The notes under the pieces: model-generated
What the model saw: only the letters and a program-made list of their open reading frames with translations
Told to the model about the DNA's origin: nothing
Database searches by the model: none
Shown: in pieces, positions 3,418 to 38,297 of the stretch
Layout: each line of letters opens with the position of its first letter
How positions within the stretch are numbered: the first letter of the stretch is position 1
Sequence record: OR352956.1
Source of the DNA: Escherichia phage AV126
DNA: 64,000 nt
Strand: one strand, 5' to 3'
Translations under genes and position numbers: made by a program

Positions 3418-3444
3418 AAATATTTAATATTTTTTAATTTTCTA

Positions 3445-3473
3445 TTGACAAAACAACAAATATCCTGTAGACT
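3445..3473 (+). promoter_or_regulatory. sigma70-like promoter, TTGACA-N17-TAGACT, with upstream A/T tract
   Basis: -35 at 3445-3450, -10 at 3468-3473; AT-rich UP-like tract 3415-3443; between portal and protease genes. Confidence 0.4.
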
Positions 3474-3509
3474 AAGATTTATGGGATATCTGTTTTTAAG
3501 AGGTTTCAA

Positions 3510-3989
3510 ATGGAACTCAATAAAGATACACTGTGGGAACTCTTCAAAACCTTCGCTGGTTTTAAAGAGAATTCTGAATCCCAACAAGATTCTATACCAT
3601 CTCAAAAACCTGAAACTCTAGTCAAACAAAATAAATTTGATGAAGAAAAGATGCAGGTTATTGAGGTCTTGTATTGTCCACCTGAAGAAGACGATCTCCA
3701 CGGAGAGCGCATGTCTGATTTGGAAATCAGGAAGATGGTTGACAACTTCAATGAGAATATTACCAACATTAGTGGTAATCTTGGTCACATGAAGAACACC
3801 GATAAGTTTTCTCCAATTAAAGCTTGGGTAAATGAAGTCGATTGTTACATTGGTGACGAACTCGTTGTGGAAGGAACTCCCCTCGTTAAAATCCAATTCA
3901 ACGACCCTGAATTATATCAAGCTCGTAAAGACGGCGTTCTTAAAGGTTTGAGTATAGGCGCAATGGGCGTTAAAGTCAAGAAGGACTAA
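3510..3989 (+). CDS. putative prohead protease
   Basis: 159 aa between portal and scaffold; His in DLHGERM and Ser in GLSIGAMG resemble the HK97-type prohead protease His/Ser pair; synteny plus weak motif. Confidence 0.4.
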   Translation: MELNKDTLWELFKTFAGFKENSESQQDSIPSQKPETLVKQNKFDEEKMQVIEVLYCPPEEDDLHGERMSDLEIRKMVDNFNENITNISGNLGHMKNTDKFSPIKAWVNEVDCYIGDELVVEGTPLVKIQFNDPELYQARKDGVLKGLSIGAMGVKVKKD

Positions 3990-5546: not shown

Positions 5547-6548
5547 ATGCCAGCAGTAATTTTAGATCAGGTTGTAGATTTCAGCCCTATGATCGAACTT
5601 CAGGATTCCCCTGATACACTGATTGCCAGCCTGAATCTGTTCAGTGTTGACTATCATTCAACTACCGCTATTGAAATCGGTAAAGAAAAAGCTGAAGATG
5701 CTCTGATCTCCGCTCGTGAGCGTGGTGGTGAGCGTAACTTCCTGACCATGAAAAATCCAGAACTGAAAGCGTTCCGCATTCCGTTCTTCCCTCTGGATAA
5801 AAACATCAAAGCTCAAGATATTCAATCTTTCCGTAGCTTTGCAATGGCAGGAATCAATGACTCTCTGCGCACAGACGCTGAAGTTGTTAACCGCTATATG
5901 TCCCAGATTCTGCGTGACGTAGCAAAAACCAAAGAGAAAATCTTTGCAGAAGCAGTTATGGGTCGTGCCTATAACGGCGTAGGTGGTGCAGCTAACTCTG
6001 CATACAACTGGTATACTGAATGGGGTGCTACCCAGAAATCTGTTGCTGTAGACTTTGCTTCTACCACTGTTTCTCCAGCAGCCACTATCGAACAAGAAGC
6101 TCGTGCTTACATCATCGATACTAAACAAGATGGCTCTACCGCTACCCGTATCGTAGCTCTGTGTTCTCGTGAATTTTTCGCATCTCTGGTTAACTCCCCA
6201 TTTGTTCGCCAAGCTTATCAGTATTTCCAGGGAACTCCTAACCTTCTGCGTGACCGCCTTAGCGGTAACATGGATGTTCAGGTGTTCGAATGGAACGGTG
6301 TAACTTACATTGAAGATATCCACGGTAACATCCCTGCTGGTGAAGCATATGTTCTGCCTATGGGTATCGAAGGTATGTTCCAGGCGCACTACGCTCCTGC
6401 GGATACTCCAGAACTGGCTAACACCCAGGCTCGTGAACTGTATACCTTCATGATCAGCCAGCACCGCACTATTCAGCTTCAGTCTGAATTCTCGCTGCTC
6501 GCAGTTAACACCCGTCCAGAACTGGTAGTTAAACTGACTACGGCTTAA
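5547..6548 (+). CDS. major capsid protein
   Basis: 333 aa; AGGAG SD; strongest codon optimisation in window; followed by strong intrinsic terminator; lambda-E-like size and position. Confidence 0.7.
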   Translation: MPAVILDQVVDFSPMIELQDSPDTLIASLNLFSVDYHSTTAIEIGKEKAEDALISARERGGERNFLTMKNPELKAFRIPFFPLDKNIKAQDIQSFRSFAMAGINDSLRTDAEVVNRYMSQILRDVAKTKEKIFAEAVMGRAYNGVGGAANSAYNWYTEWGATQKSVAVDFASTTVSPAATIEQEARAYIIDTKQDGSTATRIVALCSREFFASLVNSPFVRQAYQYFQGTPNLLRDRLSGNMDVQVFEWNGVTYIEDIHGNIPAGEAYVLPMGIEGMFQAHYAPADTPELANTQARELYTFMISQHRTIQLQSEFSLLAVNTRPELVVKLTTA

Positions 6549-9150: not shown

Positions 9151-10524
9151 ATGGCAACTTTTCGTGAAAAGGTAGCAACCGTAACTTTACTGTATGGTGC
9201 TACATCAATTCGTGAAACCCAGTTCGATATTCCTCTGATCCTTACAGGTCAGAACGTAACTGGCGAAGCGATTCAATATTACTCTTCTTCCGATGCACTT
9301 TTGGAAGCAGGTTATGGATTAAATGATCCAGCGTATATTATGGCAGTCAAACTGTTTAACGGTTTGTTCCCACCAGATCAAGTCATGGTTGGTAAGCGTG
9401 AAGTTACAAACTTTACTCTAACTCCAATCGTAGAAGATAGTGCAACTTACACAATTACCATCAAAAATGGTACCAAGAAAAAAGAATTTAAATTCATTGC
9501 TGATGACACTGCAACTGCACAAGAGATTGTAGTTGGTCTTACTGAAATGATCAATGCAGATCTTGTTTATGGCTCACTGTTTACAGTAGCTAACAACGGC
9601 GCTGCAATGACTTTCACTCCAGTAGAAGGTAAGTTTGGTTCTATTGACAGCACAGGTTTCACTCAAGAAACTGTCTATGCTAATGCTATTACGGAAGATA
9701 TTGCTGCTCTGCATGATATTGATAGTAGCTGGTTCTGGACCCTTTCAGATTCCCATGAAACAGAAGATGTTCTAGCTTTGGCTGCATGGGTAGAAGAGAA
9801 TGATAAAGTTTACTTCTTCTCTAGCTCTGAACCTGGAATTAAAACGAAAGCAGAAGACAACGTTCTGGAACGACTGAATGACCTCGGTTATAATAACACT
9901 TGCTTTGCATTGTGGATGACCGATGCAGATTCTGTATTCCCAGAAGCAGCAGTTGTTGGTGCTATCTGTTCTCGTCAACCTGGTTTAACTACCCTTCACG
10001 GTAAAACACTGGTAGGTGTAGAGATCGAGAAACTAGATCAGACTTCGGAAAACAATATTGTTCAACAGAACGGTAACATCTATCGTAAAGAGCATGGAAC
10101 TCTGTTCTATCGTGATGGATTGATGGTTAGCGGTTTCTTTGTTGACTATGTTGTTCATGCTTTGTGGTTTAAAGCTCGCACAGAAGAATCACTGTTTACA
10201 CTGTTTAAACAACAGTCTATGCTGGGTGGTGGTGTTCGTGCTACTTCAAACGGTCTAGCTTTGATTCGACAAGCTGTTCTGGCTAACCCGATCCAAGTAG
10301 GTATCCTCAACGGTTCCATCGCTAATGAAGTTGTTACTTCTGAAGAGACTGGTTTGCGTGTCGATCTGAAACCTATTGTTTATATTCCTTCTCGTGCCGA
10401 TATGACCGATGCGCAAATCAATGCTCGTCTGGTTGATGGGATGAAGATTGAATATGTTTACGCTGGCTTCTTCCATTACGTTAAAGTTCAGGTCAACGTC
10501 CTGACTAACCGTACTGCAAACTAA
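9151..10524 (+). CDS. tail sheath protein
   Basis: 457 aa immediately upstream of 159 aa tube-like gene and chaperone/tape-measure block; synteny and size. Confidence 0.55.
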   Translation: MATFREKVATVTLLYGATSIRETQFDIPLILTGQNVTGEAIQYYSSSDALLEAGYGLNDPAYIMAVKLFNGLFPPDQVMVGKREVTNFTLTPIVEDSATYTITIKNGTKKKEFKFIADDTATAQEIVVGLTEMINADLVYGSLFTVANNGAAMTFTPVEGKFGSIDSTGFTQETVYANAITEDIAALHDIDSSWFWTLSDSHETEDVLALAAWVEENDKVYFFSSSEPGIKTKAEDNVLERLNDLGYNNTCFALWMTDADSVFPEAAVVGAICSRQPGLTTLHGKTLVGVEIEKLDQTSENNIVQQNGNIYRKEHGTLFYRDGLMVSGFFVDYVVHALWFKARTEESLFTLFKQQSMLGGGVRATSNGLALIRQAVLANPIQVGILNGSIANEVVTSEETGLRVDLKPIVYIPSRADMTDAQINARLVDGMKIEYVYAGFFHYVKVQVNVLTNRTAN

Positions 10525-10527
10525 TAC

Positions 10528-10550
10528 GGCGGGGGTTAAGCCCCCGTTAT
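10528..10550 (+). terminator. hairpin after sheath gene (weak terminator/attenuator)
   Basis: CGGGGG-ttaag-CCCCCG stem-loop, poor U-tract (TTATCAAAATAAAG). Confidence 0.35.
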
Positions 10551-10570
10551 CAAAATAAAGAGGATCTATA

Positions 10571-11050
10571 ATGGATAAAATGCTTACTGGCGTAATGGCC
10601 TACGACCCATCTCAAGTTATCCTTTCATTAGGTGGTTGGGAACCGTGGGGTTTTGCGGCTGATACTAAAATCGTTATTGCTAAATCTAACGATATTATCA
10701 ACCCTTATTCAGGGACTGATGGGGACGTTTCATTAGCTTTGAGTCGTAACCGTTTGGGAACACTCACAATGTCTTTGCAACGCACATCTCCAGCTAACGA
10801 AGTACTTGCAACATATGCACAAACAATGTATTCTACTCGTCAAGTAGCATTCAGTGTTTACTTGGAAGACCCACGTGGCTATTACATTAGCACGATTGGA
10901 TGGATTCAAAGTCAGCCTGAAGATACTATTGGCGAAATGATTACAGAGAACCAATGGGTTATTGGTCTTAAAGATGCAAGCCTTCTGCGTAATGAAGTTG
11001 GTGTAGGTTTGAGCACCCTTAACTCAATCTCTGCTCTGACAATTCAATAA
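10571..11050 (+). CDS. tail tube protein
   Basis: 159 aa between sheath and chaperone/tape measure; GAGG SD; followed by strong terminator. Confidence 0.5.
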   Translation: MDKMLTGVMAYDPSQVILSLGGWEPWGFAADTKIVIAKSNDIINPYSGTDGDVSLALSRNRLGTLTMSLQRTSPANEVLATYAQTMYSTRQVAFSVYLEDPRGYYISTIGWIQSQPEDTIGEMITENQWVIGLKDASLLRNEVGVGLSTLNSISALTIQ

Positions 11051-13853: not shown

Positions 13854-13860
13854 TAAAATA

Positions 13861-13882
13861 CCTCGCTTCGGCGGGGTTTTTT
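13861..13882 (+). terminator. intrinsic terminator after tape measure gene (UUCG tetraloop)
   Basis: CCTCGC-TTCG-GCGGGG hairpin followed by TTTTTT. Confidence 0.75.
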
Positions 13883-13890
13883 CGTTTCCC

Positions 13891-13920
13891 TTGACACGAA
13901 GTTTCTATATGTGTTACAAT
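13891..13920 (+). promoter_or_regulatory. sigma70-like promoter, TTGACA-N18-TACAAT
   Basis: -35 at 13891-13896, -10 at 13915-13920, just after the terminator; followed by 5'-UTR hairpin GGAAGAT-cttgc-ATCTTCC (13931-13949). Confidence 0.5.
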
Positions 13921-13979
13921 AATCAATATGGGAAGATCTTGCATCTTCCTTTTGGCATTATCATTACTACGAGGTTATC

Positions 13980-20836: not shown

Positions 20837-22990
20837 ATGAAACAAGCTATATTTACTGTCACGCGAGACAAGAGAGTAAATGCGAGTTCATTTAACTACA
20901 CGACTGTTGATGGAACAGCAGTCGCTGGTAGAGATTATATTGCAAAATCGGGAACACTTGTGTTCCCTGATGATGCTGATTCTGCTACCATTGTGGTTGA
21001 AGTATTTGAACGACCAAAGAACTCAATAGATCTTAACTTCTCCCTCCAAGTTTCAGGGATTAGTCAAAATAACATGATGGTTGAAACGACCATCAATTGT
21101 ATTATAACTACGATCCAAGAAAATACTACTCCAATAACTTGGACTACAAAAGACGTTAAAATGTTCTCTCCTATGTATTGGACAATAGATTCTCAAGCAA
21201 CGGAAAGTTGTTCTATTGTATCTCATGGAGACTCTTTTACTGCAAGATTTGTAAACAGAACAACAGCAGGTTTGGCAGGGGTTATCTGGAGCACAGTTGA
21301 CAAATATGACCATAAAGGTGTTGGGTATTTACCCCACACAGATTTAAGTTCAGAGAAACTTTGGTTTAAAATGGAAATTAGTCAAAACATGCCAGGTTTT
21401 AAAGAAGAACCTTTGGTGCCAACTTTGACTGTAACTCTCTTGGATAAAAGTGTCCACTATGTTAGTTTAGGATTTTATGCTTCAGATATTTCAGAAGATG
21501 GTAAAACAGCTACAATCAAATTAGATTTTGGTAATATCTTTTCTGGTCCTAATAACGATATTCCTTTGGACATGAGTGCTGTAGATAATATTTTCTTCTC
21601 TTTGATTACAGCAAGGTATGAAGAAATAGAAGAGATTGTGCCTATTGATAGTCAAGAGGCTTGGTTTACTTTCACTCTCCTTGAACCTACTTCTGGTTAT
21701 AGCATCATGAAAGTCAGCAACCTTGTCCAGCCTGAACATGATATTCGTATGTGCACATCTTATGATGATATGTATAACCTGACTCCAGAGAGAGTTATTT
21801 ATAATACATATGCGCTAGGTTATCGTGGGATGATTAACCATTATAACGGAATGTCCCATTATTATGAGTTCTCATGGAATGGAACATCTTGGGCTTTAAA
21901 TAGATCTGTCTTCCTGAATCCTGCCACAGAAGCTTGGCTAAATAGTTTCCATTCTATAGCAAACGAGAAGGGCTACACAATAATGAACTCTTTAAGTTTT
22001 GAATTGATGAGCACAGTTTGTCCTGTAGAATGGGTCCAGCATGATTGGAACGATGCTCTTGCAGCAACAGGGTATGAACCTCCTAGTTATGTGTTGTCTC
22101 CAACTATTGACGAAGGTATGGAATATTTGCAAAATGTTATTAATAAAATAGCATCTATTTCGCAAGCTAATAATATTCCAGTTGTCATTCAAATTGGTGA
22201 GCCTTGGTGGTGGTATAATACAGCAAGTAAAATGCCTTGCATATATGATTACACTACCAAACTGGCATTCAACACAGAAACAGGTTTATTTGCACAAGAT
22301 GCAGGAACAATAGATAATTATAAAACAGGAACGCCGTTTGACGAATACTATGCATTTTTGTCTCGTAAACTAGGATTAAGAGTTACAAAGTTTGCAACAG
22401 ATACTAGAGCAACTTACCCAGGAGCCAAGGTAACATTGCTTCCGTTCTTGCCATCAATTATCGGCAACGGTTTGATGGAGTTTGTTAACTTCCCTAAAGA
22501 TTATTATATCCCAGAAAACTTCGACTTTTATTGTTCAGAATGTTATGACTGGTTGTTGGAAGGTAAGATGGAAAAATCTTTTGACGCTATCACAATACCT
22601 AATGAACAATTAGGTTTTAGTTATGATAAGATACATTATCTTGCAGGTTTTGTTCCAGATGCTACTCTTGCACCTTTGTATGGCTTTGATCCTAAATCAA
22701 ACTACCGCACATATCTTTGGAAGATGATTATAGGTAACATAGTGTTGAACGCCAATAAGTTTGACGGACTTACACAATATATATGGGCCTATCCTCAAAT
22801 AATGCATGATTCTATCACGGTAGTTAATTCTCAATCCCAAGTTTTCTATATGGGTAACGTGCCTTTGAACGTTTATTTACAGGATATCACTCTTAAACAG
22901 GTAAATGTTGAGATTGCCACCATAAGTGGAATTACATTAGCCACTAAATCTGGAGAAGATTTAGTAACAACACAAAAATTTTATATATAG
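20837..22990 (+). CDS. tail-associated protein with N-terminal Calx-beta-like domain
   Basis: N-terminus TVDGTAVAGRDYIAKSGTLVFPDDAD matches Calx-beta signature (DGTA..G.DY....GTL.F); 717 aa. Confidence 0.4.
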   Translation: MKQAIFTVTRDKRVNASSFNYTTVDGTAVAGRDYIAKSGTLVFPDDADSATIVVEVFERPKNSIDLNFSLQVSGISQNNMMVETTINCIITTIQENTTPITWTTKDVKMFSPMYWTIDSQATESCSIVSHGDSFTARFVNRTTAGLAGVIWSTVDKYDHKGVGYLPHTDLSSEKLWFKMEISQNMPGFKEEPLVPTLTVTLLDKSVHYVSLGFYASDISEDGKTATIKLDFGNIFSGPNNDIPLDMSAVDNIFFSLITARYEEIEEIVPIDSQEAWFTFTLLEPTSGYSIMKVSNLVQPEHDIRMCTSYDDMYNLTPERVIYNTYALGYRGMINHYNGMSHYYEFSWNGTSWALNRSVFLNPATEAWLNSFHSIANEKGYTIMNSLSFELMSTVCPVEWVQHDWNDALAATGYEPPSYVLSPTIDEGMEYLQNVINKIASISQANNIPVVIQIGEPWWWYNTASKMPCIYDYTTKLAFNTETGLFAQDAGTIDNYKTGTPFDEYYAFLSRKLGLRVTKFATDTRATYPGAKVTLLPFLPSIIGNGLMEFVNFPKDYYIPENFDFYCSECYDWLLEGKMEKSFDAITIPNEQLGFSYDKIHYLAGFVPDATLAPLYGFDPKSNYRTYLWKMIIGNIVLNANKFDGLTQYIWAYPQIMHDSITVVNSQSQVFYMGNVPLNVYLQDITLKQVNVEIATISGITLATKSGEDLVTTQKFYI

Positions 22991-29494: not shown

Positions 29495-32400
29495 ATGGCA
29501 ACATTCCCAACATATCCAGCAACGTCTCTTGAACAGGGCGTAGATCTGGTTATTTTCTCGTCTAACCAACTCCATGATGTTATTAATGGAAGTGCTACAG
29601 AGAGTATTGAAACAGAATCAGGGTTGATACCAACCCTGAGAAAAGCCCTTGTTGACAACTTTTTCTTTAAAAGTCCATTAGATTGGGCGCAAGGCACAAA
29701 CGAAACAGTTTTTAACCAACTTCGTTATTTCCAGAACGGAGTGTTGAGTGGTTATTACTATGCGCCTAATGCTACGCTGGTAAACCCAATTCCTATGCAA
29801 GGGACTCCAGTAGGAGATAACAACTGGGTATTGTGGGGACTGAAGACAGAACAACTAGCAACAGAAGTCACCCCTTGGGTATATTCTGGTGCAACTGGTT
29901 ATGAAACAGTAATCAGTCCTCCCTACATCTTTGATAGTGCTATTGTTACAATCAATGGTGTTATTCAGGTTCTGGGAGAAGCTTTCCGCATAGAAGATAG
30001 TAAAATCATTTTATCTGAACCTTTGGGACATGATCCTGCAACAGGACTGCCAAACAAGCTTTTTGCCTATATTGGTAAAATCGTAGCTTCCGCAGATACA
30101 GATCCTAACTTAGAAAACCGTCTTGTCAGTTTAGAAACAAAAACTGAAGAACTGACAGAAAGCATGGATAAAGTACCTTTACAAACTATTGCTCGTAAAT
30201 ACGGTTTGTTGGATGACGAAGTAGCTTACGCAACAGCGGGTCAATCATTAACAGGGATTAAAGCTCTGTATGATCCGGTAGCACAATCTTCCTACACATT
30301 GCCTCCTAACATCACAGGGACTTTAACATCTTTGTCTGTTTCTGGAGTAATGACTTATTCTGGCGGATCTGTAGATCTTTCTGCATTAGCTGTTGAACGT
30401 GGACAGTTTGTTCATTTGCCTACAAGCTTTGGTAATAATGTAACTCTGACAGCTAAAAATCAGACGATTGGGCGTGGCGCTGGTCGCTATCGTTGGGCGG
30501 GAAGTTTACCAAAAAGTATTTTAGCTTCTGATACATTGGAAACAAGTGGTGGATTAGGTCCAAATGCATGGGTTCTAACTAATACAGAAGGACTGTTAAC
30601 CCCTCGTGGTGGAACATACAACGATTTATTCGATGTTGTCCACTTGTCAGAATTTGCTAACAATACAACTACATATACCACACCAGAAGCAGCTTTCCAG
30701 GCGGCACTGTTAGCAGCAAAAGCTTCGAAAAGTAAGATTCTCGACGCTTACGGTTGCGATATGACTTTCACGACAAGCTCTTTTGATATTCAAGATATCA
30801 CTTTGCGTGGGGGTGTGTTCCGTGGTCAACGCGACTATCGTGTGCAAAATGCTACAGTAGAAGGCACAACTTTCCGTAACTCTCGTGTTATGTATTGGGG
30901 TGGTGCTGTGCGCATGTTCGATTGTTTGTGGGACGGTGCTCCTCGCGCAGGTCAAGTTGGTAGCTTGGTATTCCAAGGCAACCCAATATCAGGTACTTTT
31001 GAAATTGATAATTGTACTTTTAAAAATGGGTTATATGGCATCCTTCAACAAGGAACAGGGGAACCAGTAACACGCGGTGTCTTCCGTAACCTTACCTTCA
31101 TGGACATGCAAGGTGATGCAATAGAACTGAACGTCATCAATAAACATTATGATGATGGTTGTGTGATTGAGAATATTTACCTGTCTAATATCGATGGGAC
31201 TAACGCTCCTATTCCTCTGTCCAACTGGGGTATCGGTATTGGTGTAGCTGGTAAAGGACCATATGGTTACGGAATCCCTGATGATCAATATTGCAAGAAT
31301 ATTACAATTCGTAACGTTTTTGCAAAACGTTGTCGTCAGATTGTCCACGTAGAAGTTGGCCGTAATATTTCTATCGAAAACATTCATGGCGATCCAGATC
31401 AAACTGTATCTGTTGGGACAGGTTTGGCAACTGGCGCAGTTGTAATGTATGGAAGTAAAGATTTTACGATTGATGGTGTTTACGGAGAGCCTAAAACAGA
31501 CGGTAGCACACTTGCAAGTAATATCCGTATGATTTATTTGGAGTGGGGAACTAACGCAGTTCTGGACGAAGAGGGCAATCCGGTAGTTCCGGCACAGGGC
31601 AGACCTTCAAACCCATGCTTTAACTATTCTGTTCGTAACATTCACACCAAAACTGGGCGTGTTTTTGCAGGAGTTTCCGCTGGGCCAGGTTATGAAAACA
31701 GAGTCAGCTTTGAGAATATCCGTTGTGCTGCGTTGCAGTTGTTCGGTGTAGCTTCTTGGCTTTCAATGTCTAACATCACCTGTAATATCTTTGATTGTGT
31801 TGGTCAACCTGAATCTGGTCCAGGGACATTTTATGATGGATTCTTCCGTAGAGAAAAATCTGTTCTTGAGATGGTTAACGTAAACTGTTACCCAGATGGC
31901 AAGACTATGGTTACTGGTCGTCCACAGTGGAGCCGTTGCCGTTACTCTGATATTCATCGTGTCAACTGTAATGTTGAAGCTAATATGTATACCAATATCG
32001 CAGGTGGTATTGGAGCTATTGTAGGGACAACTGGCAAAGTTTATTACTTAGAGCCTAACCCTAGCCGAAACATTGATGGGATGCATTTCCCAACAGGGAA
32101 GGAGTTTGACAAAGGGGATATGATAGTCAAAGCGGATAATACGTTCTTCCTTGTAACAACAAGTGGGGCATACATTCCAGATATCCCAGCTTTCGGTATT
32201 CGAGCTACACAGGCAGGAGATACCTTCCTGACACAGAACTTGACTCCTAACGGGACAGCAACAAACGCTTCTTGGTTGTATCACTATCCTCTGTCAGCAG
32301 GAACACGTATCCGTATTCCTGGTGCTGGTGTAGGTGGAGCAGATTTGGACACAGTTATTACTCGTGCACCTTATCAAGATAATGATACGTGGACTAACCC

Positions 32401-32548
32401 AGTTAAAATAGACATTGCAGATCCAATTGTAACGCCTACGAGTGCTGGAGTTAGAATCAAAACCATACCTAACGATTCTAGTAATGTTTCTGTAGGTAAT
32501 ACTGCGGTTATTCGCCCAACACCAGTGGTAGATGTGCCAACAACCTAA
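29495..32548 (+). CDS. tailspike protein with right-handed beta-helix (pectate-lyase-like) domain
   Basis: 1017 aa; central region with periodic Asn/Ile/Val/Gly repeats typical of parallel beta-helix (NITIRNVF, ISIENIHGD, VFRNLTFMDMQGDAIELNV). Confidence 0.5.
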   Translation: MATFPTYPATSLEQGVDLVIFSSNQLHDVINGSATESIETESGLIPTLRKALVDNFFFKSPLDWAQGTNETVFNQLRYFQNGVLSGYYYAPNATLVNPIPMQGTPVGDNNWVLWGLKTEQLATEVTPWVYSGATGYETVISPPYIFDSAIVTINGVIQVLGEAFRIEDSKIILSEPLGHDPATGLPNKLFAYIGKIVASADTDPNLENRLVSLETKTEELTESMDKVPLQTIARKYGLLDDEVAYATAGQSLTGIKALYDPVAQSSYTLPPNITGTLTSLSVSGVMTYSGGSVDLSALAVERGQFVHLPTSFGNNVTLTAKNQTIGRGAGRYRWAGSLPKSILASDTLETSGGLGPNAWVLTNTEGLLTPRGGTYNDLFDVVHLSEFANNTTTYTTPEAAFQAALLAAKASKSKILDAYGCDMTFTTSSFDIQDITLRGGVFRGQRDYRVQNATVEGTTFRNSRVMYWGGAVRMFDCLWDGAPRAGQVGSLVFQGNPISGTFEIDNCTFKNGLYGILQQGTGEPVTRGVFRNLTFMDMQGDAIELNVINKHYDDGCVIENIYLSNIDGTNAPIPLSNWGIGIGVAGKGPYGYGIPDDQYCKNITIRNVFAKRCRQIVHVEVGRNISIENIHGDPDQTVSVGTGLATGAVVMYGSKDFTIDGVYGEPKTDGSTLASNIRMIYLEWGTNAVLDEEGNPVVPAQGRPSNPCFNYSVRNIHTKTGRVFAGVSAGPGYENRVSFENIRCAALQLFGVASWLSMSNITCNIFDCVGQPESGPGTFYDGFFRREKSVLEMVNVNCYPDGKTMVTGRPQWSRCRYSDIHRVNCNVEANMYTNIAGGIGAIVGTTGKVYYLEPNPSRNIDGMHFPTGKEFDKGDMIVKADNTFFLVTTSGAYIPDIPAFGIRATQAGDTFLTQNLTPNGTATNASWLYHYPLSAGTRIRIPGAGVGGADLDTVITRAPYQDNDTWTNPVKIDIADPIVTPTSAGVRIKTIPNDSSNVSVGNTAVIRPTPVVDVPTT

Positions 32549-32557
32549 TGGAAATAG

Positions 32558-32585
32558 AGAGGGGGGATTCCCCCCTCTTCTTCCA
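32558..32585 (+). terminator. hairpin terminator after tailspike gene
   Basis: AGAGGGGGG-att-CCCCCCTCT 9 bp stem followed by TCTTCC. Confidence 0.5.
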
Positions 32586-32614
32586 ATAGAATGGTCTAAT
32601 AATAGGAGAGATAA

Positions 32615-34639
32615 ATGAATTTAACAAGACCTAATAGTGCGATAGCCGATCTGGTAGAAGCTACTTATCGAAAACGTCGCAGTTTTGAGGCAGGTTTTAC
32701 ATTACGTAATTCCCGTGAAGTTTTGCTGTTAGCGGCAGAAGGGAATTATTACCAATGGAAAGGAACTTTTCCTAAAGTAGTTCCAGCAAACTCTACGCCA
32801 GCCACCACAGGCGGTATTTCTTCCCTTGCATGGCAAAGTGTTGGGACCGCTGATGATATAGCAATTATCAATGCCAAGTTTACGGCAATGCAGCAACAGA
32901 TTGATGATCTGTCGGAAACAATACCTGAAGCTGGTAAATCGGCTTATCAGATCGCACTTGATAATGGTTTTGTTGGAACAGAAGCACAATGGCTTGCTTC
33001 TTTGAAAGGGGATACTGGTGCTCAACTTAATATTAAAGGATCGTTAGCAAGCACTAGTGAACTACCATCTACAGGTAACGTTGCAGGGGATGGTTATATC
33101 GTAGGCGATGTGATTTACGCTTGGGACGGTTCTGTTTGGAAACTTATTTCTTCTCTTGGACCAGAAGGGAAATCAGCTTACGAGGTATGGTTGGCAGATG
33201 GTAATACAGGATCTGTTTATGACTTTCTTGCCTCTATAAAAGGTGATAAAGGAGACGTTGGTCCTACAGGTCCACAGGGTGCACCTGGTGTCAACGCTAA
33301 TGGTTTTGATTACCGTGGAGATTTGCCTTCTACAAGTAACTTACCACAACCTAACTCTGAAAACGTAAGCCAAGCTTATTCTATTAATGGTAATCTTTAT
33401 GTCTCTAATGGGACAGCTTGGGTCAACATGGGTAATATTGTTGGTCCTCAAGGTCCACAAGGTGAGGCAGGTAAAGACGGTCTAGATGGAACAGATGGAG
33501 ACGAAGGGAAATCTGCATATCAAAGTTGGCTGGACGCTGGTAATGAAGGGACAGAAGTAGATTTTATTGCCTCGCTTAAAGGTCCAAAAGGAGACAAGGG
33601 AGAGCAAGGAGAACGAGGACCACAAGGCGAATTAGGTCCACAAGGACCAGTGGGTGCAACAGGATCAGGTTTAGAGATTATCGGGGTTCTGAACAGCGAA
33701 GCTGAACTTCCTCCGACTGGAGAAGTAGGTGACGCATATAAAATTAATAATGATTTGTATGTTTGGGTTCAAGATGCTACGGAATGGATGAATGTTGGTA
33801 GTCTTGGAGGAACATCAATTACAGCTAAAGGTCATGTTCCGAACAGTGAAGCTCTACCTGTTTACAATAACTATGGTGATGCCTACTTAACTGAAGACAC
33901 TAGTAATCTTTACATCTATACCTACGATCAAGACACCAATTCCGCATCTTTTGTTGACATGGGAAGTATTAAAGGCGACAAAGGTGAAAAAGGGGATAAA
34001 GGAGATAAGGGTGATCCTGGAACAAACGGAACCAACGGTACTGATGGGACCAACGGTAAGGACGGCGCACAGTGGTTTGTAGCAACAACTAATCCAGTCG
34101 CAGGAGACGGTGTTATCAATGATTACGCCTTCAATACTACCACTGGAGCAGTGTTTAAGAAAACAGATTCTTCTACGTGGACACTTATAGGAACTCTTCC
34201 TAGTATACCAGAAGCCCCTCAAGACGGCTTGACGTATGGTCGTTCTGATGGAAACTGGATCGAAATATCAGGATCAGATCCTACGGAAGCTATAACACCA
34301 ACTAGAGTTACAGCAGGTTTCATGGAACTTGAAACAACTACTACCAACTCTGGAGCATCTTGGACTCCTTCTGGAACTTCCAATATGTATGTTGTTACAG
34401 TAACTGACGCTCTGACAGTTGGAGCATGGCCTGGTGTCACTGGCTCTACAAAACCTAAAGCGTTTTCAGCAATGATTTATTTGATTCAAGATACAACGGG
34501 ACACACGGTTACACTAGATGCGTCTTATGGAGCACTAAATGATACAGAAATAGCAACTACTGCTAACGCAGTAACAATTTTGCAATTAACGTATCCTGGT
34601 GTGGGTGATATCGTGGACATGGTTGTTGTAACACGATAA
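32615..34639 (+). CDS. collagen-like repeat tail fibre protein
   Basis: 674 aa; four Gly-X-Y blocks alternating with repeated GKSAYQ...SLKG modules; own terminators on both sides. Confidence 0.65.
   Translation: MNLTRPNSAIADLVEATYRKRRSFEAGFTLRNSREVLLLAAEGNYYQWKGTFPKVVPANSTPATTGGISSLAWQSVGTADDIAIINAKFTAMQQQIDDLSETIPEAGKSAYQIALDNGFVGTEAQWLASLKGDTGAQLNIKGSLASTSELPSTGNVAGDGYIVGDVIYAWDGSVWKLISSLGPEGKSAYEVWLADGNTGSVYDFLASIKGDKGDVGPTGPQGAPGVNANGFDYRGDLPSTSNLPQPNSENVSQAYSINGNLYVSNGTAWVNMGNIVGPQGPQGEAGKDGLDGTDGDEGKSAYQSWLDAGNEGTEVDFIASLKGPKGDKGEQGERGPQGELGPQGPVGATGSGLEIIGVLNSEAELPPTGEVGDAYKINNDLYVWVQDATEWMNVGSLGGTSITAKGHVPNSEALPVYNNYGDAYLTEDTSNLYIYTYDQDTNSASFVDMGSIKGDKGEKGDKGDKGDPGTNGTNGTDGTNGKDGAQWFVATTNPVAGDGVINDYAFNTTTGAVFKKTDSSTWTLIGTLPSIPEAPQDGLTYGRSDGNWIEISGSDPTEAITPTRVTAGFMELETTTTNSGASWTPSGTSNMYVVTVTDALTVGAWPGVTGSTKPKAFSAMIYLIQDTTGHTVTLDASYGALNDTEIATTANAVTILQLTYPGVGDIVDMVVVTR
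33242..34066 (+). repeat. interrupted collagen-like Gly-X-Y triplet repeats (coding)
   Basis: Blocks at about 33242-33292, 33443-33511, 33581-33670, 33974-34066. Confidence 0.8.
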
Positions 34640-34642
34640 CAG

Positions 34643-34669
34643 AAGCCCCGAAAGGGGCTTTCTTTTTAT
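34643..34669 (+). terminator. intrinsic terminator after collagen-like gene
   Basis: AAGCCCC-gaaa-GGGGCTT hairpin followed by TCTTTTTAT. Confidence 0.75.
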
Positions 34670-34680
34670 GGAGGGTTTAA

Positions 34681-37353
34681 ATGTTTCCAATTCCAATATT
34701 TACTATTATGACCAGCACTGGTGTCGTTCCTCTGCCAGCAGGTATTGTTAAAAAAGTAATCACTTTAGATTACCCAGATAATGCTGGTAATTCTAATAGC
34801 AGTTTAGCAATTTTGCTTAATGATGGCAGATTGTTTACTCAAGGCGCAAACCTTTTTGGTGAGATTGCAGATGGAACTCGTAGTGCACGATTCAATAATT
34901 TCCACTTAGCTTCTACTGTAGTAGCGGATGTGTTTACCGCAGATCGTTGTTTTGTTATTAAAACTAACAGTGGGGGATGGCAATATTCAGGATTGACAGC
35001 AGGGTTAGTAGGATCTATAGCAGCAGGTGGGACGGATGCATGTGTAACTACTTGGACCAGCTTTCCATCTGTAATAACAGGGACTATCTCTTTAGCCAAT
35101 CTTAAAGAGGTTAAGGGAGGATATAACAACACTCTCTGGTTAATGAATAGTGGTGTTCTTTATGGATCGGGTCAAAACACAGTAGGCAGTTTAGGTGCAA
35201 GTACTACTAACGAAGTTTCTACTCCTCGTCAGATAACAAGTGCAGCAGTTGCTTTTGATGCAGGTTACAACCAATGCTCTTATGTCAACAATGTGGGAAC
35301 CTTGCGTGTTTGTGGAGCCAGCAAAGGTTTAGCAGGTAACAATAACACAACAAAAGCTTTTGTAAATGCTACGATATCCACTACTGAAACAGTGTATGTC
35401 AAAGATTACATCAATACCGTTTCCCAGACAATAGTTGTAGGAGATACCTCCGGCGGCACGGGTACAGTAAACTACTTATATGTTAGGTCTAATACAGAAA
35501 CAACCTACACTAAACTGGATACCTTTGCAGCAGGTTTCTCAACATGGAAGTTTCCACCAAGCCGCCACTCTTTTTTCGTTGGGATCAATAATTCCTTGTG
35601 GGCTATTGGTAAGAACTACACTGCAAACTTAGGTTTGGGGTATGATTCTGCGAGCGGAGATCCACTTCAAGTGGGAAAACCAGTTAAACCTGAAGGAGTG
35701 GGTTCCTGGGATATAAACAAGCTCACAAGCGTTCATACGCTGAATATGGATGTTACTAACCAATTAGGTTATCAAGGAACCTTTTTCGTTTATAATGGAG
35801 ATATGTATTATTCCGGTATTTGGAAAGATGGGAAAGCCTCGTATCTGTTCAATAGTGGTCTAAACTATAATAAATTCACACCAATAGCAAGCTCCGTGAT
35901 TACGGGTGATATTCTGGCAACTGGCTTAACTACAGATTCTTTAGGAATTTGTATTGTAGGTGGAACTAAACAGTTGACACATTCTGTTAGCCCAGAAGGA
36001 GGTAAACTTTTCAATATTAAATACACTTCTTCTGCCCCTGCAAACATGACAATATCATCTACTGGTTTAATGACTTTCCATGCAGAAGGTGGTTTTGATG
36101 CAGGTATGACAGCCTTAAACGCTGAAGGAACAACTTTATCAGATACCTCTGGAGGATATGCTTCAACATTGAGTGTTTACACCCCTAGCTTATCTGCGAT
36201 GGATGTAGGAACAACACAAACAATGGTAGCAGAAATAACGCCAACAGGAGCAGCAAGCTTACCTGGTATGGTTGTTGAGTATACAACTACAGATCCTAAT
36301 GTTGCTACAGTAGATCCTACAACTGGTGTAATAACTGGTGTTGGTGATGGTGGTTGTAGAATTGGTTGCACAGCTACGTATCAAGGTGTTGTTACCGCTT
36401 CTGATAGTTCTTATTTAACGGTGAACGCTGTTGCGGGAAAGGAGTTAGCTCCATCTCCGAGTAGTAGTCTAACGGTTCTAAACGGATATTTCAACCACTC
36501 GGCAGATGGGGCAATTACGTTCCCAATTTTATCGGGTACTGTCACACCAGCTAACTTTGTAGTTAAGGTGGATGACGTTGTAATACCTTCAAATAAAGTA
36601 ATATTTAGAAATAAAGCTTTCTCTACAGTGGATAGTTATCCAGCAGGAGAATATAGACTGGCTATTGAATTTGCAAGTGCTTCAGTAGTGAATAGTGTTG
36701 ATGTGTCTATGGAAGCAAATCCAGATCTTTTAGAATTATGGGGCGGCAACAGAATTGGTTATTCTACAAGCCCAGCCTCACAATTCTTAAAAGGTTGTGC
36801 TAACTTAAGACGAATAACTTCTGATTGTTTTAGTAACACATCTTACACCGGAACATCTATAAGTGGTATCTTCTCTGGCTGTACAAGTTTGACAGCTATC
36901 CCTGAAGGATTATTCAGTGATGCTTTATTTCCTTCAATGACAACAATGTCAAGCACGTTTGAAGGTTGTACATCTTTAACATCTATTCCTTCAGATTTAT
37001 TTAAGAATCTATCAAAAGTTACAAGATATTCTTACACCTTTAAAGATTGCACCTCTCTTGCAGAAGTTCCAGCAGGAATGTTTGATAATATTCCAACGAA
37101 AGTGACCTCTTTAACAGCTACATTCCAAGGTTGTTTAGGACTTACAGATTTTAATAAGATCTTTAATGACAACCCAGGGTTAACTGTTTGTGGTAAACGT
37201 GGAGCATTATCTTCTTTCTTTAGTGGATGCACAAATCTTACAGGAACAGGAACAACATTAACAAATACATTAGGCGGAGTAGCTAATAGTTACCTATTCA
37301 GGTATTGCACAAAACTTTCGGATTATAACAACATTCCTTCCGGTTATAAATAA
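34681..37353 (+). CDS. adhesin-like tail fibre protein with RCC1-like, Ig-like and BspA-type LRR repeats
   Basis: 890 aa; GGAGGG SD; N-terminal beta-propeller-like repeats, Ig-like segment (VATVDPTTGVITGVGDGG), C-terminal F.GCTSLT..P repeats. Confidence 0.55.
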   Translation: MFPIPIFTIMTSTGVVPLPAGIVKKVITLDYPDNAGNSNSSLAILLNDGRLFTQGANLFGEIADGTRSARFNNFHLASTVVADVFTADRCFVIKTNSGGWQYSGLTAGLVGSIAAGGTDACVTTWTSFPSVITGTISLANLKEVKGGYNNTLWLMNSGVLYGSGQNTVGSLGASTTNEVSTPRQITSAAVAFDAGYNQCSYVNNVGTLRVCGASKGLAGNNNTTKAFVNATISTTETVYVKDYINTVSQTIVVGDTSGGTGTVNYLYVRSNTETTYTKLDTFAAGFSTWKFPPSRHSFFVGINNSLWAIGKNYTANLGLGYDSASGDPLQVGKPVKPEGVGSWDINKLTSVHTLNMDVTNQLGYQGTFFVYNGDMYYSGIWKDGKASYLFNSGLNYNKFTPIASSVITGDILATGLTTDSLGICIVGGTKQLTHSVSPEGGKLFNIKYTSSAPANMTISSTGLMTFHAEGGFDAGMTALNAEGTTLSDTSGGYASTLSVYTPSLSAMDVGTTQTMVAEITPTGAASLPGMVVEYTTTDPNVATVDPTTGVITGVGDGGCRIGCTATYQGVVTASDSSYLTVNAVAGKELAPSPSSSLTVLNGYFNHSADGAITFPILSGTVTPANFVVKVDDVVIPSNKVIFRNKAFSTVDSYPAGEYRLAIEFASASVVNSVDVSMEANPDLLELWGGNRIGYSTSPASQFLKGCANLRRITSDCFSNTSYTGTSISGIFSGCTSLTAIPEGLFSDALFPSMTTMSSTFEGCTSLTSIPSDLFKNLSKVTRYSYTFKDCTSLAEVPAGMFDNIPTKVTSLTATFQGCLGLTDFNKIFNDNPGLTVCGKRGALSSFFSGCTNLTGTGTTLTNTLGGVANSYLFRYCTKLSDYNNIPSGYK
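36781..37340 (+). repeat. BspA-type leucine-rich repeats (coding, about six copies)
   Basis: Repeated FSGCTSLTAIP / FEGCTSLTSIP / FKDCTSLAEVP / FQGCLGLTDF / FSGCTNLTG / FRYCTKLSD units. Confidence 0.6.
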
Positions 37354-37355
37354 GA

Positions 37356-37385
37356 AAAGGAGCCATTTGGCTCCTTTCTTTTATA
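37356..37385. terminator. bidirectional terminator between convergent modules
   Basis: AAAGGAGCC-attt-GGCTCCTTT hairpin with T-rich flanks on both strands; between + strand stop (37353) and - strand ssb stop (37410). Confidence 0.7.
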
Positions 37386-37409: not shown

Positions 37410-38297
37410 TCAGAACGGAATATCATCATCGAAGTCCATCGGAGGTTCTTCTTGATTACTTGGAGTTGGTTCTGGTTGTGGTTCAGGCTTTTTAACTTCT
37501 TTCTTCTCTTCTTTCTTAGGTTGTTCTGCGGAACCACGAATGGCAGCAGCAACTTTATCAGACAGAGCTAGAACTTTACGAGCAGAATCAATCAGATCTT
37601 CTACAGATACAGTCTTAATGGTATGGTCTTTACAAGCATTGAGGATAGCGTGACCAACAGATGCCCCAAGATCATAATCATTAATATCAACGCCACGAGA
37701 TTCAGCAATTTCAGATTTCAGCGTGACAGTTGCAGATTGAACAACCCCAGCGATATCGAAAGCATCGCCTTTAACACCATTACGAATCAGTTCCAGTGCA
37801 CCATTTACTGCGTGACCAGTTTCCAGACCTACAGTATCACGTTTTTTATAGGACTGTTTAGGAGCAGCATCGTTGGAACCTTTATTGCCAGAAGATTTGT
37901 TAGACTTCTGAACACCATCGGTAGACAATACTGTAATACGAGATTTTTTAGTATTGTAGTAAGTTTTACCGCCTTTATTATCAACGCGATCAATATCAAT
38001 ACTTACTTCTACACCTTTTTCAATAGTGATCCAGTTATCACCTTCTTTAACTTGCAGGTTTTCATAACCTTCTTTCAGTTCAATGTCACCAAGAGAAATC
38101 CAAACACCTTTCTCATCTGGTTTAGCACCTTTCTCTTTCAGAACAAGAGAAGCTCGGTGAGTTGAAACAATCGTTTTTCCTTCCCAATGAAAAGTTTTAG
38201 GTTCAGCGAATTTATCCAGTTTAACGTAGTCTACGATACCAGTTGCATAAGTTACGGTTTTGCCTTTACGATCAGTTTCAGTATTAATTACGGACAT
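37410..38297 (-). CDS. ssb: single-stranded DNA-binding protein
   Basis: 295 aa; AGAGGAG SD; Gly/Asn-rich linker and acidic tail ending MDFDDDIPF, identical to the E. coli SSB C-terminal tip. Confidence 0.85.
   Translation of the reverse strand: MSVINTETDRKGKTVTYATGIVDYVKLDKFAEPKTFHWEGKTIVSTHRASLVLKEKGAKPDEKGVWISLGDIELKEGYENLQVKEGDNWITIEKGVEVSIDIDRVDNKGGKTYYNTKKSRITVLSTDGVQKSNKSSGNKGSNDAAPKQSYKKRDTVGLETGHAVNGALELIRNGVKGDAFDIAGVVQSATVTLKSEIAESRGVDINDYDLGASVGHAILNACKDHTIKTVSVEDLIDSARKVLALSDKVAAAIRGSAEQPKKEEKKEVKKPEPQPEPTPSNQEEPPMDFDDDIPF

Follow-up and report, generated by a model that had tools for sequence, protein, structure and literature searches.

Domain organization and relatives of a collagen-like tail fibre gene in Escherichia phage AV126

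Introduction

Phapecoctavirus and phi92-like phages carry several different fibres and are therapy candidates against avian pathogenic Escherichia coli (APEC), strains with extended-spectrum beta-lactamases (ESBL) and encapsulated E. coli. One of the phi92 proteins, gp151, appears as a 'potential tail fiber' in two reports (PMC5380687, PMC10269720), and the latest phi92 structure leaves both the position and the receptor of gp151-type fibres unassigned (PMC13450770). Collagen-like fibre proteins of E. coli prophages form collagen trimers, and their C-terminal domain refolds them (PMC3368898). The present analysis concerns a gene of this kind in Escherichia phage AV126 (sequence record OR352956.1), which lies at 32615..34639 on the + strand of a 64,000-nt stretch, referred to here as the window; coordinates are those of the window unless another record is named, and all features given for the fibre gene and its borders are on the + strand. 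Its product of 674 amino acids (aa) is probably a side (tail) fibre of a phAPEC8-like myophage, formed as a homotrimer and built like beads on a string from collagen segments and two kinds of repeated module, with an attachment region at the N-terminus and a predicted host-binding tip at the C-terminus.

Gene identity

The gene starts with ATG and is preceded by a ribosome-binding site (AGGAG, 32604..32608) that ends 6 nt 5' of the start codon; the phi92 record has the same motif ahead of gp151. The source phage belongs to Phapecoctavirus (phAPEC8-like E. coli myophages, Stephanstirmvirinae), and the 3.2-kb region around the gene shows 95–99% nucleotide identity to 60 deposited records, mostly E. 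coli phages by name. For the gene itself, nucleotide identity to about 60 deposited genomes is 97–99%. In matching GenBank records the gene is labelled tail fiber, tail spike or collagen triple helix repeat protein, and PHROG 15437 ('tail fiber protein') matches the product from end to end at 1336 bits. The gene corresponds to phAPEC8_00179 (YP_007348547), which falls in the same protein cluster at an identity of at least 90%. Nucleotide identity to the gene for phi92 gp151 is 63% across 99% of the gene, and the phi92-type proteins (the P0007 cluster) align over the full length with about 60% identity. Orthology to phi92 gp151 and phAPEC8_00179 rests on this full-length homology and on a conserved place directly after the gene for colanidase, both of which were found. 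An earlier note on this DNA had called the product a collagen-like tail fibre with modular internal repeats; the label is right, and agrees with the GenBank annotation and with the listing of phi92 gp151. It is an ordinary phage tail fibre gene, already annotated in dozens of genomes. Antisense open reading frames (ORFs) of 98, 111, 63 and 73 aa within the gene have no supporting evidence and were set aside as by-products of Gly-X-Y codon periodicity.

Collagen blocks and shaft modules

The central part of the protein contains four Gly-X-Y runs, at aa 210–227 (6 triplets), 277–300 (8), 323–352 (10) and 454–486 (11), together with two families of module with the patterns GKSAY...S(L/I)KG (A modules) and LP..G..Y...Y.W (B modules). 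All of these had been recognized in the earlier note, and all score above shuffled controls. That they alternate, as also stated there, is roughly right by the module order, A-B-A-c6-B-c8-A-c10-B-B-c11-(B5). In 5000 shuffled versions of the protein the longest Gly-X-Y run averages 2.8 triplets and never rises above 7, and the Pfam family Collagen (PF01391) is matched with 46.4 bits against a cut-off of 27.2. Pro, Asp, Lys, Gln and Glu are abundant at the X and Y positions, a composition shared with the collagens of bacteria and phages. Collagen block 1 (33242..33295) has the same count of 6 triplets in all orthologues, while block 2 (33443..33514; 8 triplets) has 5–11 and block 3 (33581..33670; 10 triplets) has 8–10 in these proteins. 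Block 4 (33974..34072), with 11 triplets encoded by 9-nt tandem arrays, is the most length-variable segment of all (0–13 triplets).

The three A modules, each of 26 residues, occupy aa 107–132, 185–210 and 298–323, and are encoded at 32933..33010 (A1, GKSAYQIALDNGFVGTEAQWLASLKG, a helix-turn-helix), 33167..33244 (A2) and 33506..33583 (A3). Module likeness was scored by Smith-Waterman alignment of module pairs against shuffles, by which the A modules are related with z = 15–19 at a pairwise protein identity of 50–65%. The four B modules, of about 50 residues, are more diverse (pairwise z = 5.6–13) and lie at aa 136–184, 228–278, 352–400 and 401–453, encoded at 33020..33166 (B1), 33296..33442 (B2), 33668..33814 (B3) and 33815..33973 (B4). 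A degenerate fifth beta module, B5 (aa 487–529, 34073..34201), resembles B1 only (z = 6.6). A BLASTP comparison of the protein with itself shows the diagonal only. Searches of Pfam-A and NCBIfam give no match for the A or B modules, the hits being restricted to collagen-type families and Tail_spike_N, and a sequence search of the PDB finds no solved structure that matches either module. The B type is widespread: a search of 1.84 billion cluster representatives with a profile of the four B modules detects 3605 at E ≤ 0.001, and single proteins hold as many as 15 copies.

An AlphaFold2 model of the monomer has a mean predicted local distance difference test (pLDDT) value of 64 and a predicted template modelling score (pTM) of 0.26, so that its local folds alone are usable. 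The A modules are modelled as two short helices, and the B modules and B5 as four strands each, with pLDDT values of 70–86 (about 75–86 for the four-strand units, among them about 83 for B1 and about 80 for B5). The Gly-X-Y blocks fall below 50, which is to be expected of a chain that folds only as a trimer.

Terminal domains and the foldon-like motif

Outside the repeats, the protein carries several elements that go beyond the earlier description: an 11-residue N-terminal peptide, a Tail_spike_N domain, a coiled coil, a foldon-like motif and a phiTE_241_C tip. The peptide (aa 1–11, 32615..32647) is the most conserved segment of the protein, with 91% identity even among orthologues that are about 60% identical, and is a putative docking peptide. 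It is followed by the Tail_spike_N domain (PF18668; aa 12–77, 32648..32845), found with E 1.3e-19 and 70.5 bits (Pfam cut-off 25 bits) in an alignment that covers profile positions 4–69 of 70. Matches in the PDB relate it to the N-terminal region by which the CBA120 tailspikes TSP1, TSP3 and TSP4 and the tailspike G7C gp63.1 attach to the particle. A single long helix at aa 81–102 (32855..32920; DSSP on the AlphaFold2 model) is predicted to be a trimeric coiled-coil neck. The phi92 gp151 record mentions a 'central domain' predicted as a coiled-coil fold, which presumably refers to this short helix.

Directly after B5 lies the foldon-like motif SIPEAPQDGLTYGRSDGNWIEIS (aa 530–552, 34202..34270), a putative element for trimerisation and registration. 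It is identical to the foldon of T4 fibritin in 13 of 22 positions (59%; pairwise E 6e-10), its PDB matches are to fibritin and to foldon-tagged constructs (E 2e-5 to 6e-3), and the model shows a hairpin of two strands (540–544 and 547–551). In relatives there are 'faint' Fibritin_C hits. Some relatives (P0015, P0016, P0020, P0024, P0027, P0028 and P0037) have alternative C-termini with 3–5 tandem copies of (E/D)APxDGxxYxRxxGxW, after which comes a conserved 'RYDL...LTNLPSGRAMPIV...' domain.

The C-terminal domain (PF26209, Phage_phiTE_241_C; aa 562–674, 34298..34636) is beta-rich in the model, with pLDDT values of 76–89, and is the candidate for a distal receptor-binding tip. It is homologous to residues 682–790 of 9cuy_g, with E 8.6e-8 for the single sequence and 7.1e-16 for a profile, and is 45–50% identical to rV5-like tail fibres at their C-terminal ends. 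The Pfam search of the protein itself gives no hit for this domain; PF26209 is precomputed on P0001, a protein 99% identical to the one studied here, and on P0006.

Proposed assembly and place on the virion

These elements can be arranged into a plausible fibre. The conserved N-terminal peptide and the Tail_spike_N domain would fix it to the tail fibre apparatus, where the likely docking partner is another fibre or spike rather than a baseplate wedge, since the protein is without the phiTE_241_N-type anchor that is present in the colanidase. The shaft would consist of the short coiled coil, the helix-turn-helix A modules, the beta B modules and four segments of collagen triple helix. At a rise of 0.29 nm per residue (estimated as in PMC3368898), the 105 Gly-X-Y residues would give about 30 nm of triple helix, and thus a thin, flexible shaft. 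The foldon-like hairpin that follows probably nucleates the trimer and registers the collagen helices from the C-terminal side, a task that falls to C-terminal domains in fibritin and in the collagen-like fibres of E. coli prophages, and the phiTE_241_C beta domain would be the distal tip that binds the host. Identity among orthologues drops from 91% in the N-terminal peptide to 32–60% in the distal parts, and this fall, together with the exchangeable C-termini, fits a polarity of N-terminal attachment and C-terminal tip.

Several points weigh against a tail fibre of this design. The best match of the model to a solved structure (Foldseek) is the trimeric capsid spike of Pa223 (E 2.4e-4, probability 0.96), which is a capsid protein and not a tail fibre. 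In predicted viral structures this architecture is frequent, both in proteins with a tail fibre or virion protein annotation and in collagen-like proteins of giant viruses. The trimeric state, the folding of the collagen and the docking partner are inferred, because the model is that of a monomer with a pTM of 0.26. The Pfam search gives no Fibritin_C (PF07921) hit at the foldon-like motif, and as relatives carry the motif in tandem, the single copy here may be one unit of a beta-repeat and not a true foldon. A search of the literature found no virion proteomics or imaging for the protein, and no relevant virion proteomics for Phapecoctavirus. In the cryo-electron microscopy (cryo-EM) study of phi92 from 2026, the predicted gp151 structure does not fit the low-resolution density of fibre II, the function of the protein is called uncharacterised, and proteins other than gp151 are proposed for fibres I and III (PMC13450770).

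Some of the same observations could be read as placing the fibre on the head or neck, as a capsid spike or a fibritin-like whisker that gives weak, reversible adhesion. The match to the Pa223 capsid spike has been reported for phi92 gp151 as well (PMC13450770), a foldon is the hallmark of T4 fibritin, which is a neck whisker, and in the phi92 record the N-terminal domain is listed as a 'potential capsid binding domain'; moreover, none of the three densities for baseplate fibres of phi92 can be fitted by gp151. Such a location is nevertheless quite improbable. The Tail_spike_N type belongs to tail-attached tailspikes (CBA120 TSP1, TSP3 and TSP4, G7C gp63.1), the gene stands between tailspike and tail protein genes and far from the head genes, a position kept in distant relatives, and the phiTE baseplate fibre and rV5-like tail fibres have the same C-terminal domain. 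As for the missing density, cryo-EM averaging would erase a thin, flexible collagen fibre at any site. Attachment to the tail is thus the preferred reading.

A more specific arrangement on the tail is suggested by the upstream neighbour, the colanidase tailspike (29495–32548), an orthologue of phi92 gp150. The colanidase has a phiTE-type baseplate anchor (aa 11–124, matching residues 14–129 of 9cuy_g with E 1.9e-18) and a full tandem tailspike N-domain (aa 226–367), whereas the collagen fibre has at its N-terminus the peptide and half of an N-domain only and at its other end the phiTE-type tip, which suggests that the fibre may dock on the colanidase or on another spike. The order of spike gene and then fibre gene is kept in four distant relatives of about 150 kb, and this conserved pair, with the split of the anchor, suggests docking like that of the branch subunits in CBA120- and G7C-type complexes. 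That the collagen fibre and the adjacent colanidase together form one branched organelle, with the fibre docked on the colanidase trimer or another spike, is a tentative proposal, possible though on the doubtful side. If it is true, the phage would carry a flexible adhesin of about 60–80 nm that is invisible to cryo-EM averaging, which would explain why phi92 gp151 fits no density, and the collagen blocks would be permissive joints for the exchange of modules and tips.

Length variation and module exchange

The proposal that the modular DNA repeats mediate recombinational length variation survives in small part: triplets are inserted and deleted, and modules have been reshuffled among distant relatives, but the modules are too diverged and the close relatives too uniform for more. 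When 32615–34639 is compared with itself, self-similarity is evident at the protein level, while the DNA repeats are short and diverged. As DNA the A modules are 56–65% identical, exact direct repeats in the gene reach 12 nt at most, and the best off-diagonal match covers 94 nt at 70%; the sole tandem arrays are the 9-nt Gly-X-Y units of collagen blocks 3 and 4. Copies this diverged, with so little exact identity, offer homologous recombination between modules no substrate.

The comparison of copy number with related phages gives a similar picture, in that close relatives nearly all have 674 aa, although triplet counts vary between lineages. Among 30 sampled records with at least 88.9% nucleotide identity, 28 span 2024–2025 nt, and all 13 full-length members listed from the protein cluster of at least 90% identity have 674 aa. 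In ASO2A one 9-nt unit (AACGGAACC, window 34025–34033) is lost from the GGAACMAAC tandem of collagen block 4, and in two phi92-type variants this block is one triplet longer. Module order is invariant among orthologues down to 58% protein identity, in-frame length differences being mainly those of triplet counts; the orthologue P0011 is without B5.

Two records depart further from this uniformity. SKA64 (OM362897.1) has, at about 1430–1585, a perfect 77-nt tandem duplication of A1 (corresponding to window 32933–33010) plus one missing G; the frame is broken, and the record annotates a 549-aa protein that starts downstream. EP57 (vB_EcoM_EP57, OR544956.1, 3001–4539) has an in-frame deletion of 486 nt (window 33566–34053) that removes collagen block 3, B3 and B4 together with the end of A3 and most of block 4. 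Its flanks are also altered, the colanidase being split into three ORFs (183, 238 and 482 aa) and the tail protein downstream having 542 aa (890 aa here), and its genome has only 130.7 kb. Both were considered as proof of repeat-mediated rearrangement and rejected: the EP57 junction is without homology and the adjacent genes are truncated, so that an assembly artefact is possible, and the broken frame of SKA64 could reflect a real mutation or an assembly error.

It is accordingly very improbable that this is a contingency-type fibre, in which internal DNA repeats recombine or slip so often that module number and host range shift. The 9-nt tandem arrays of blocks 3 and 4, the block 4 triplet lost in ASO2A and gained in the two phi92-type variants, the SKA64 duplication and EP57 deletion, and the wide differences in module number over the family would all agree with such a gene. 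They are outweighed by the shortness of exact repeats and the divergence of the A modules, by the constant length of close records and cluster members, by a module order that holds down to 58% protein identity, and by the defects of SKA64 and EP57, either of which could be an assembly error. Neither long, near-identical repeats nor frequent differences in copy number, which mark repeat-mediated contingency genes, were found.

The variation that is seen operates at two scales. In the collagen DNA, with its period of 9 nt, slippage makes the number of triplets drift. Gain, loss and reshuffling of whole modules are real, only at large evolutionary distance: over the wider family, single proteins have 0–19 A modules, 0–11 B modules and up to 13 Gly-X-Y blocks. 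In relatives that have the N-terminal two-thirds in common with the fibre but end in other C-termini, homology stops at aa 466–525 of the query, that is, at collagen block 4 or B5, and modules and tips are exchanged over long distances with break points at these sites. Repeat-driven copy-number change within the gene is not real.

Transcription

Hairpins flank the fibre gene on both sides. The upstream one, between the colanidase and fibre genes (TCTTCTTCC, 32556..32578), is GC-rich with a poor U-tract, and the enclosing 70-nt segment has −27 kcal/mol. The downstream one (GAAGCCCC-GAAA-GGGGCTTT followed by CTTTTTAT, 34642..34661) is terminator-like and lies 20 nt before the next ATG. Both are annotated as terminators in related records (the upstream one in Schickermooser and ASO2A). 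A GC-rich hairpin in fact follows each of the last three structural genes on the + strand (32556–32578, 34642–34661 and 37356–37377), and phi92 has hairpins of different sequence at matching positions (about 3963–3983 and 5965–5983 of the phi92 stretch).

The earlier note had taken the gene as its own transcription unit, and this is not supported, the flanking hairpins notwithstanding. A scan of the 66-nt gap upstream (32549–32614) for a sigma-70-like promoter found none; its one -10-like string, TAATAAT (32599–32605), overlaps the ribosome-binding site. If the fibre were transcribed independently as a late gene, from a promoter and to a terminator of its own, this would account for the terminator-like hairpins on both sides, their annotation as terminators in relatives and the phi92 hairpins at the same positions. 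Such a unit is unlikely, given the lack of a sigma-70-like promoter in 32549–32614, where a late promoter with a phage-specific motif may still exist, while three other gaps of the same structural module (1751–1851, 3418–3509 and 13854–13979) do show clear TTGACA/-10 pairs. In addition, the upstream hairpin has no proper U-tract, and the next gene, only 20 nt beyond the downstream hairpin, also has no promoter that could be found ahead of it. Transcription within the late structural operon, by read-through of the flanking hairpins, is the preferred explanation. The conservation of intercistronic hairpins suggests that they are attenuators or RNA-stabilising elements, and they may either tune the dosage of the fibre gene or stabilise the RNA.

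Other features of the window

The fibre gene is part of a tail fibre cluster, with Baseplate_J, Caudo_TAP and N4-gp65-like fibre genes farther upstream. The N4-gp65-like gene (20837–22990, + strand) encodes a 717-aa fibre protein with Calx-beta and the N4 gp65-like domains NCTSP_N and TIM-barrel_NCTSP (E 1e-78). A preprint of 2026 links a tail fibre protein homologous to N4 gp65 (for example phi92 gp142) to binding of the NGR polysaccharide.

The downstream neighbour (34681–37353, + strand) encodes an 890-aa tail protein, with an RCC1-like beta-propeller (aa 40–331), Big_2 Ig-like domains and a repetitive C-terminus rich in Cys, Thr and Ser. The slot after the fibre gene is highly variable in relatives, where it holds proteins of 351–574 aa with Big_2, DUF285 or Laminin_G_3 domains. 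At about 37.4 kb the GC skew changes sign; here the structural genes of the + strand meet the replication genes of the − strand (DNA polymerase, helicase/primase). Close to this point, at 37410–38297 (− strand), is a gene for a 295-aa protein that ends in PMDFDDDIPF. This is the acidic tip found at the C-terminus of the E. coli single-stranded DNA-binding protein (SSB), and the gene product is presumably a phage single-stranded DNA-binding protein that mimics the partner binding of host SSB. No tRNA genes were found in the 64-kb window.

Implications

The general understanding of fibres of this type is unchanged by these results. What the domain map supplies is a set of pieces that can be expressed, tagged or swapped, namely the docking peptide, the shaft modules, the foldon-like element and the exchangeable tip. 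The A and B shaft modules, with no match in Pfam-A, could be defined as families, which would improve the annotation of phage fibres.

Comparison with known systems

The collagen-like side tail fibre proteins EPclA/B of E. coli prophages have a domain for attachment, a coiled coil, a collagen triple helix and, at the C-terminus, a globular domain that trimerises (PMC3368898), a general plan that the AV126 fibre is predicted to share. They differ in having one long collagen domain between PfN and PfC ends, in place of four short blocks interrupted by A and B modules between Tail_spike_N and phiTE_241_C ends. The fibres of Stx phages match aa 275–351 of the AV126 protein at about 47% identity. 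The foldon of T4 shares with the motif found here the pattern IPEAPxDGxxYxRxDGxW, with 13 of 22 positions identical, and a predicted beta hairpin C-terminal to a trimeric shaft. In contrast to T4, the motif here is internal, with a domain of about 120 residues after it, it occurs as 3–5 tandem copies in relatives, and there is no Fibritin_C match.

The CBA120 tailspikes TSP1 and TSP3 and G7C gp63.1 have the Tail_spike_N-type domain in common with the fibre. These tailspikes dock onto another fibre protein, not onto the baseplate. The AV126 fibre has only the second half of their tandem N-domain (aa 12–77 correspond to about residues 88–166), and where they have the body of a beta-helix enzyme it has a collagen fibre.

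The capsid spike gp52 of Pseudomonas phage Pa223 (PDB 9NY6) is the solved structure that best matches the model. According to the Pa223 paper it is trimeric, and its parts are an attachment peptide, a triple beta-helix and a knob at the C-terminus. It differs in being a capsid decoration, and collagen is unmentioned in the description given in that paper; identity over the aligned columns is 14%, and the PDB search gives no match at the sequence level. The template modelling (TM) scores to gp52 are low, as only a single chain was modelled for the query.

The long tail fibre of Pectobacterium phage phiTE (PDB 9CUY/9MJN, chain g) is homologous over the C-terminal 110 residues or so. Its N-terminal baseplate anchor is missing from the collagen fibre and present in the adjacent colanidase, and sequence matches in the PDB search are confined to the ends of the phiTE protein and leave out its shaft. 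The anchor and the tip of one phiTE fibre are thus split here over the adjacent colanidase and collagen fibre genes; in the relative L007, the phiTE_241_C domain occurs in yet another gene (9387–10850).

A close counterpart is gp151 of phi92 (Justusliebigvirus). Proteins of the phi92 type have 653–656 aa against 674 aa here, mainly from the number of triplets (27 vs 35), and the gene downstream in phi92 encodes a much shorter gp152 in place of the 890-aa RCC1/Big_2 protein. The two agree in several respects: the gene comes directly after that for the colanidase, the modules follow the order A-B-A-c-B-c-A-c-B-B-c, and the N- and C-terminal domains are the same.

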